A DNA stretch of 24,000 nt, from assembly GCF_000315235.1 (NCBI RefSeq), contig NZ_BALG01000064.1:1-24000 (forward strand), given 5' to 3'. The stretch's first letter is position 1; each line of letters opens with the position of its first letter. The position numbers and the translations under genes are program-made. Source of the DNA: Paenibacillus popilliae ATCC 14706 (GTDB taxonomy: Bacteria > Bacillota > Bacilli > Paenibacillales > Paenibacillaceae). The notes under the pieces were generated by a model. That model made no database searches, was not told where the DNA came from, and was given only the letters and a program-made list of their open reading frames with translations. This document shows positions 19,593 to 19,778 of this stretch, one piece after another.

Positions 19593-19636
19593 AAAAAAAT
19601 CCGGCTGCGATTTAACTATTGTTAAACGCAGCCGGA
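19593..19636 (-). terminator. Intrinsic terminator in the adhesin leader (riboswitch expression platform)
   Basis: The minus strand reads tccggctgcg-tttaac-aata-gttaaa-t-cgcagccgga followed by T7. That is 16 bp of stem with one bulge. It lies 74 nt upstream of the adhesin ATG. Confidence 0.8.
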
Positions 19637-19715
19637 CGATCATGGGCCTGACGGCCTTTAGATTCCAAAGCTTTGCGGCCTAATCTTTCGATTAGTGTGC
19701 CCAATGTAGTTGACA
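19627..19715 (-). promoter_or_regulatory. c-di-GMP-I (GEMM-I) riboswitch aptamer in the adhesin leader
   Basis: The minus strand reads GGGCACAC-UAAUC-GAAA-GAUUA-GGCCGCAAAGC-UUUGGAAUCUAAAGGCC-GUCA-GGCCCAUGAUCGUCCGGCUGCG. It has the GNRA-capped hairpin, CGCAAAGC junction, CUAAA/CAUG receptor-like internal loop and CCGGCUGC 3' segment in GEMM-I order (compare Vc2 GGGCAAACCAUUCGAAAGAGUGGGACGCAAAGCC... from memory). Confidence 0.7.
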
Positions 19716-19749
19716 TATCCAATACCAAGCTAAGCACTATGTAATGCTT

Positions 19750-19778
19750 AATATATTGGACAACTTCCTATTTGTCAA
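19750..19778 (-). promoter_or_regulatory. Sigma-A-type promoter of the adhesin leader
   Basis: On the minus strand: TTGACA (19778-19773), a 17-nt spacer, then TATATT (19755-19750). It sits ~35 nt upstream of the aptamer. Confidence 0.65.

Follow-up and report, generated by a model that had tools for sequence, protein, structure and literature searches.

Is the large surface-adhesin gene of Paenibacillus popilliae ATCC 14706 under the control of the second messenger cyclic dimeric guanosine monophosphate (c-di-GMP), and, if so, does the messenger turn the gene on or off? The question is raised by the leader of this gene, which lies on the minus strand of a 24,000-nucleotide (nt) stretch of the genome (contig NZ_BALG01000064.1, positions 1 to 24,000; the whole stretch is referred to here as the window). 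An initial annotation, made from the letters alone, had proposed that positions 19593-19778 hold a complete c-di-GMP-I riboswitch unit, consisting of a promoter, an aptamer and an overlapping terminator, that acts as an ON switch. Judged by homology, conservation and folding, the element at the centre of this leader is a genuine, well-conserved class I c-di-GMP riboswitch aptamer, and it very probably forms part of a transcriptional ON riboswitch in front of the adhesin gene.

Aptamer, terminator and promoter of the adhesin leader

The unit is made up of the following features, with the helices taken from the Rfam structure mapping:

19750-19778, minus strand: sigma-70-type promoter (TTGACA at 19778-19773, 17-nt spacer, TATATT at 19755-19750)
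19624-19711, minus strand: c-di-GMP-I (GEMM-I) aptamer, matching Rfam family RF01051 over model positions 1-87 of 87
19675-19700, minus strand: P2/P1a hairpin with GAAA loop
19630-19672, minus strand: P3/P1b helix with receptor-like internal loop
19701, 19677, 19674, 19637 and 19628, minus strand: equivalents of the Vc2 contact residues G20, C44, A47, G83 and C92, respectively
19593-19636, minus strand: intrinsic terminator (5' arm 19636-19621, loop AAUA 19620-19617, 3' arm 19616-19600, U7 tract 19599-19593)

Every element named in the initial annotation is found at the coordinates it gave. The proposed class assignment is borne out by the Rfam search, in which RF01051 matches 19624-19711 over the full model (E = 2.8e-10) and scores 62.6 bits, the gathering score being 35. 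Zero non-canonical pairs are flagged, and RF01051 is the top-scoring family of its clan, CL00126, for this aptamer. No class II (RF01786-type) match was found at the gathering threshold in the window, which holds class I aptamers only. The layout described in the initial annotation is also recovered, with a GNRA-capped hairpin, the CGCAAAGC junction, a receptor-like internal loop and a conserved 3' end. The GAAA tetraloop is located at 19689-19686, and the internal loop UCUAAAG / CAUGA aligns to the consensus CUAAg / uAuGa; docking of the tetraloop into the receptor is predicted.

The contact residues were located by combining the Rfam alignment with equivalences from PMC4744006 and PMC11218506. 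The match carries G at position 11, A at 38 and C at 84, which are the ligand contacts, as well as C at 35 and G at 75, which form the interhelical pair; the equivalents of G20, A47, C92 and C44-G83 are all canonical, and their columns are invariant across the 43 orthologues described below. The equivalent of C92 is presumably the first C after P3, a placement based partly on the Vc2 structure. It is consistent with an alignment of 19 aptamer copies of both adhesin-side and protease-side types, in which this column is invariant (19/19). The adhesin-side aptamer would be expected to bind c-di-GMP.

The terminator consists of UCCGGCUGCGUUUAAC, the AAUA loop and GUUAAA(U)CGCAGCCGGA, which form 16 base pairs (bp) around a single bulged U and lead into U7. 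Its fold has a predicted energy of -26.8 kcal/mol (z = -7.65), and none of 200 shuffles was equally stable. The hairpin was not listed by a simple terminator scanner because of the bulged U in the 3' arm, as the scanner allows no bulge, and the matter was settled by direct folding. As the initial annotation had stated, the 5' arm overlaps the 3' end of the aptamer; it is made up of the final 13 nt of the Rfam match plus the 3' flank. In detail, UCCGGCU (19636-19630) is both the 3' strand of lower P3 and part of the terminator 5' arm, which then continues with GC, including the C92 equivalent, and into the 3' flank. Aptamer and terminator exclude each other because they use the same nucleotides, with no separate anti-terminator. 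The mutual exclusion proposed earlier is supported by this direct sharing, which is kept in 43 of 43 copies, and by compensatory changes in both folds.

The TTGACA-17-TATATT promoter is present on the minus strand as described, agrees with the consensus at 11 of 12 positions and ties for the best site found by scanning 6 kb. Transcription is predicted to start near 19743 (minus strand). The spacing of about 35 nt to the aptamer given in the initial annotation needs correcting, as GGGCACAC (which begins GGGCAC) starts 47 nt past the -10 hexamer and ~41 nt past the likely transcription start.

Relatives of this locus were collected by a scan with a PPEP (Pro-Pro endopeptidase) profile, using one genome per species, which gave 70 loci; an aptamer covariance model, for which the initial Rfam matches served as input, then found 141 aptamers in these 70 loci and the window. 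The adhesin-side set comprises 41 related loci with 43 aptamer copies, two copies each being present in loci L024 and L025. In ~40 Paenibacillus and Fontibacillus species, two tandem aptamers precede the protease gene and one aptamer on the opposite strand precedes a large open reading frame (ORF). This ORF encodes a VWA-type D-x-S-x-S motif in 40/41 loci and an xxPPxP motif, mostly xLPPxP, in 35/41. Promoter, aptamer and overlapping terminator recur in all 41 related loci, with TTGACA-17/18-TATATT located 31-102 nt upstream of the aptamer in each of them and without variation in a six-species alignment. Such recurrence of the whole unit is far beyond chance.

The overlap is itself conserved. 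A hairpin followed by a U tract begins at (G)UCCGGYUGC within the aptamer 3' strand in all 43 adhesin-side copies, and the distal part of the terminator stem varies by lineage yet remains paired. In the 43-sequence alignment, 99.3% of cells over the 22 aptamer pairs are paired, with 8 pairs changed on both sides, and the corresponding figures for the terminator are 92.2% and 5 pairs. The covariation score was matched by none of 500 shuffles for either fold, and controls in which the structure was slid along the alignment were 7-46% paired over both folds (7-44% for the aptamer). RNAalifold, applied to aptamer and terminator in one alignment, mixed the two folds into a chimera, and each fold was therefore counted separately. 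The window aptamer agrees with all 40 columns that are invariant in the 43 copies, and its 62.6 bits compare with 63.7-65.4 for its closest relatives.

Two species carry a duplicated arrangement: L024 (13735-13972, minus strand) and L025 (15178-15410, minus strand) each contain two complete tandem adhesin-type units ahead of the adhesin gene, in which each aptamer has its own overlapping terminator.

Probable polarity and proposed mechanism of the switch

The terminator state of the leader is computed at -52.4 kcal/mol and the best aptamer-compatible state at -36.5 kcal/mol, a gap of 15.9 kcal/mol in secondary structure only, and the default state is therefore predicted to be OFF. Since the two folds share nucleotides without an anti-terminator, the ligand-stabilised aptamer must prevent termination, which argues for an ON switch. 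ON polarity and kinetic control are thus predicted, and the ON reading of the initial annotation gains support from the conserved overlap, the covariation and the analogy with a characterised relative.

This relative is Bc2 of B. thuringiensis BMB171, a class I ON switch before cap, the gene for a collagen adhesion protein (Tang et al. 2016; PMC4933901). In Bc2 a terminator forms without c-di-GMP, and c-di-GMP raises read-through into cap both in vitro and in vivo (PMC4933901). A comparison with the Bc2 sequence, taken from the supplement of PMC4933901, places both RNAs in the same subtype (GCACAC ... GGCCGCAAAGC ... GAUCGUCYGGYUGCA), with 64% identity over 87 aligned nt. Membership of the same subtype as a switch proven to be ON is the strongest external support for ON polarity here.

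A mechanism can be proposed in which transcription begins at the strong sigma-70-type promoter ~40 nt upstream of the aptamer. At low c-di-GMP, the newly made 3' arm (19616-19600) would pair with UCCGGCUGCGUUUAAC, stripping the P3 3' strand and the ligand-contact C from the aptamer; the 16-bp hairpin with U7 would form and transcription would end after ~150 nt. At high c-di-GMP, the ligand would lock the three-helix junction before the 3' arm exists, the terminator could not nucleate through P3, and read-through would allow the VWA/MucBP/SLH adhesin to be made. Such kinetic trapping would have to take place while ~12-28 nt are transcribed, after the aptamer is complete and before the 3' arm is. 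The PPEP encoded next to the adhesin would then release it by cleaving PLP↓PVP immediately ahead of its SLH anchor, so that the riboswitch would serve as the 'attach' arm of an attach/detach circuit.

Several observations weigh against an ON switch of this kind. The equivalent of Vc2 A18 is U in the window RNA, as it is in many other copies, although it is A in the closest relatives. No convincing P1 could be formed from the flanks, either by hand or in a fold of the nascent transcript, and only a 4-bp interrupted pairing was found. The nascent fold also lets the leader segment GUGCUUAG (19737-19730, minus strand) pair with UUGGGCAC. This partner takes in the base of P2 and the G20 equivalent, which the pairing would occupy; the GUGCUUAG pairing is kept in the closest relatives only. 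Finally, the terminator is so much the more stable fold that read-through would rest entirely on kinetic trapping.

Adhesin and protease genes and alternative explanations

The features downstream of the terminator, together with the regulated gene, are:

19549-19576, minus strand: hairpin 2, a weaker hairpin (UUCU-CC-GCAG ... CUGC-AGAA) ~20 nt after the terminator U tract
19517-19533, minus strand: Shine-Dalgarno (SD) sequence GAGGAGG at 19533-19527 and ATG at 19519-19517, from the sequence and the ORF list
16244-19519, minus strand: regulated adhesin gene of VMSP type, 1091 amino acids (aa), from its Pfam domains

The Pfam architecture of the adhesin comprises a signal peptide, a VWA domain, a GBS104-like immunoglobulin domain, MucBP and C-terminal SLH anchor repeats. 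Its N-terminus, MKRRFRL..., agrees with that of relatives, and it is 63-79% identical to the P. dendritiformis orthologue. A single PLPPVP site is encoded at 16904-16921 (residues 867-872), just ahead of the SLH region, compared with two such sites in relatives. At 17380-17654 (minus strand, residues ~620-770), a 42-nt tandem repeat of 6.5 copies with 98% identity encodes VVDSGIG(T/M)NIEGDD, and behind it lies a diverged and incomplete duplicate of the C-terminal segment of the VWA domain (DNGIGT..SLERIF.ELT). The repeat and the duplicate replace several MucBP repeats of P. dendritiformis.

The leader beyond the terminator differs between P. popilliae and other species. In 23 relatives (L001-L005, L010, L012, L013 and 15 others), this part of the leader holds a second hairpin, then a start-less SD-like GUGAGGAGG, then a second SD and a three-codon ORF (ATG AAA AAA/AAT/ATA/ATC TGA), the stop codon of which overlaps the adhesin SD. 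P. popilliae lacks ~45 nt between two copies of TGAGGAGG, the window counterpart being located at 19520-19535 (minus strand), and the window adhesin therefore starts directly after the first SD. In per-sequence folds, the counterparts of hairpin 2 in the 23 relatives range from -7 to -13 kcal/mol, with stem sequences that differ between lineages. The consensus is UUCUCA-CGGA..UCCG-UGAGAA, and the GCGG/CCGC of the closest relatives is replaced by GCAG/CUGC in the window. RNAalifold on a MAFFT alignment of the downstream leaders gave no consensus structure, so that a conserved hairpin at this position is only weakly indicated. Hairpin 2 matched no Rfam family.

Elsewhere in the window, a 135-aa ORF (19854-20261, plus strand) runs divergently from the adhesin promoter. 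Of the 297 positions in the inosine-uridine nucleoside hydrolase profile, it matches only 165-208, and it is probably a gene fragment or pseudogene. A 501-aa ORF without a Pfam match (8282-9787, minus strand) has a cytochrome bd / ABC transporter cluster on one side and a glycosyltransferase gene on the other, and a 428-aa ORF on the opposite strand (8285-9571) mirrors it.

The protease side of the locus contains two further features:

15519-16178, plus strand: PPEP homologue of PPEP-2 type with an HETMH zinc site (Pfam ATLF, PF07737, E = 2.7e-56)
15334-15423, plus strand: second c-di-GMP-I aptamer, before the PPEP gene (RF01051, 54.6 bits, four non-canonical pairs flagged)

The PPEP gene is convergent with the adhesin gene, and its product is 100% identical to PPOP_1359 of P. 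popilliae ATCC 14706. The ORF (15468/15519-16178) gives a 219-aa form, compared with 236 aa in the deposited gene model. Relatives carry two tandem protease-side aptamers, each with its own expression platform. In P. popilliae, a clean deletion of ~195 nt between the tandem aptamers, with the crossover inside GCCAGCCAG (context 15080-15530), has joined the distal aptamer to the proximal platform and removed the distal terminator, leaving a hybrid. This hybrid carries substitutions at 15344, 15359, 15369 and 15373 (plus strand), where the other 90 protease-side copies are 100% invariant. The Vc2-G20 ligand contact is changed from G to A, the GAAA tetraloop reads GAAG, G45 is replaced by A, with loss of a junction pair, and A49 is replaced by G. 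None of the 91 copies deviates more, and the hybrid may be decaying or re-tuned. The G20 to A change looks at first sight like a clear defect, but the validated Bc2 also has A there; on this analogy, the change alone need not disable the protease-side aptamer.

The platform that remains (15424-15518, plus strand) forms a long hairpin, GAAGCAAGC..CUGCGCGAU ... AUCGCGGAGCAG..GCUUA, which ends at the ribosome-binding site without a U tract. The long-hairpin layout is also that of P. dendritiformis and P. thiaminolyticus; in P. profundus (L004), by contrast, a real terminator occupies this place. The protease-side terminator of relatives begins ~30 nt beyond the aptamer, which is consistent with the layout of an OFF switch with a putative anti-terminator pairing, and the protease-side aptamers resemble Bc1. 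When the two sides were examined for opposite control, the substrate side was found to have ON architecture, while the protease side of the window has lost that terminator to the deletion and retains an atypical aptamer.

The state of the locus gives some grounds for regarding the adhesin-side aptamer, too, as a non-functional relic in P. popilliae, in which case the terminator would be a constant attenuator and adhesin levels would be low whatever the c-di-GMP concentration. On the protease side there is only a deletion hybrid, with four substitutions peculiar to it; MucBP repeats and one of two PLPPVP sites are missing from the adhesin; a conserved segment of ~45 nt is gone from the leader; the flanking nucleoside-hydrolase gene looks truncated; and the A18-equivalent position is U. 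The adhesin-side aptamer, however, matches 40 of 40 columns invariant across the 43 copies and scores within 3 bits of its closest relatives, while the terminator, the promoter and the full-length ORF are all intact, making loss of function improbable.

The structure of the downstream leader bears on a further explanation, which accepts the switch but places some or most of its effect at translation or mRNA stability, with the SD hidden or exposed by that leader. The minimum-energy fold of the whole leader pairs UUCUCCGC (19576-19569) with the SD-containing GCGUGAGGAG, and the UUCU of UUCUCCGC can alternatively form hairpin 2. Relatives retain a hairpin, the start-less SD and the three-codon upstream ORF, and class I switches of V. 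cholerae work without termination (PMC6366702). Yet the pairing of the SD with UUCUCC occurs in this genome only, because of the deletion, and the downstream leader nowhere pairs with the aptamer, leaving no obvious path for a ligand effect. As the strong, conserved, overlapping terminator suffices to explain control, regulation at this later level is highly unlikely. Single contact-position changes can shift the specificity of GEMM RNAs (GEMM-Ib), the Rfam clan contains variant families and the 'GCACAC' subtype departs from Vc2 in the J1/2 junction, but recognition of another cyclic dinucleotide, such as 3'3'-cGAMP (cyclic GMP-AMP), as in some GEMM-I variants, is hardly credible given that G at G20, A at A47 and C at C92 are retained, that RF01051 is the best of its clan and that Bc2, of the same subtype, responded in vitro to c-di-GMP and not to c-di-AMP, GTP or cGMP.

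With a transcriptional ON switch as the preferred reading of the adhesin side, the two sides of the locus can be considered together. It is possible, though rather doubtful, that P. popilliae, an obligate insect pathogen, has uncoupled an ancestral toggle, with the Bc2-like subtype representing an ON lineage and 'GCAAAC ... UACC' an OFF lineage of GEMM-I. The adhesin arm may have retained an intact class I ON switch while the protease arm collapsed to a hybrid aptamer that lost its only canonical terminator, and the protease may now be free of c-di-GMP control or under an altered signal. More generally, 'GCACAC ... UGCA' may be a dedicated ON form and 'GCAAAC ... UACC' an OFF form, paired at one locus in ~40 Paenibacillus species.

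Comparison with known systems

Control of adhesin genes by class I ON switches is established knowledge dating from 2016 (PMC4933901), and the present locus adds no new mechanism and no new RNA class. The leader resembles Bc2 in having an intrinsic terminator right after the aptamer and a surface-adhesin gene downstream. It differs at the Vc2-G20 position, which is A in Bc2 and G in the window RNA, and in its target, Bc2 controlling a sortase-type collagen adhesin and the window leader preceding the gene of an SLH-anchored VWA/MucBP protein; cap has no described PPEP protease partner. The window RNA shares with Vc2 the GNRA tetraloop and receptor, the G20, A47 and C92 equivalents and the C44-G83 interhelical pair. 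Vc2, in contrast, does not act via transcription termination and has A18 and a clear P1, where the window RNA has U at 18 and no obvious P1.

Closer to home, the VMSP/PPEP-2 locus of Paenibacillus alvei is reportedly the subject of Klychnikov et al. 2018. The VMSP architecture is that of the PPEP-2 substrate in P. alvei (PMC8610288), and the locus is orthologous to that of the window, with PPEP convergent with a VWFA-MucBP-SLH substrate gene bearing PLP↓PVP sites. The P. alvei aptamer is 79.5% identical to the window aptamer and has an identical overlapping terminator layout (L010). P. popilliae differs from P. alvei and group A in having one PLPPVP site rather than two and one hybrid protease-side aptamer rather than a tandem pair. 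The initial annotation implied that the arrangement was new, but type I c-di-GMP riboswitches in the 5' untranslated regions of both PPEP-2 and its substrate gene had already been reported for Paenibacillus group A in 2021 (PMC8610288). Neither the polarity nor the expression platforms of these riboswitches are treated in that paper, which leaves P. popilliae unmentioned, and Kobayashi 2016 (PMC5072692) mentions no riboswitch of a Paenibacillus VWFA protein. What is new here is the reading of the expression platform, that is, a predicted ON architecture conserved in 43 copies and backed by covariation. It adds ~40 natural candidates for class I ON switches with overlapping terminators, which would be useful for studying terminator invasion versus ligand binding.

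The circuit is best compared with that of C. difficile, in which PPEP-1 is under a class I OFF switch, and CD2831 and CD3246 are under class II ON switches (PMC6366702), in agreement with the earlier statement that the PPEP-1 substrates are induced through class II riboswitches. In the PPEP-1 (Zmp1) / CD2831 / CD3246 system, the protease gene adjoins one substrate gene and has its own c-di-GMP riboswitch. Here, as in C. difficile, the PPEP gene adjoins a surface-protein gene with a P-P-x-P motif before the anchor, and the P. popilliae adhesin would presumably be cleaved by PPEP. The two systems differ in their anchors (LPXTG/sortase in C. difficile, SLH here) and in the cleavage site (VNP↓PVP versus PLP↓PVP). 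All functional class I switches of C. difficile are OFF, whereas the substrate gene of the window appears to have a class I switch wired ON. The locus thereby extends the PPEP-1 model to another Firmicutes order, in which the substrate gene carries a riboswitch of a different class, and it yields a testable prediction for sticking versus releasing in Paenibacillus, namely that one second messenger, acting through one aptamer class wired in opposite directions, would control both an adhesin and the protease that sheds it.

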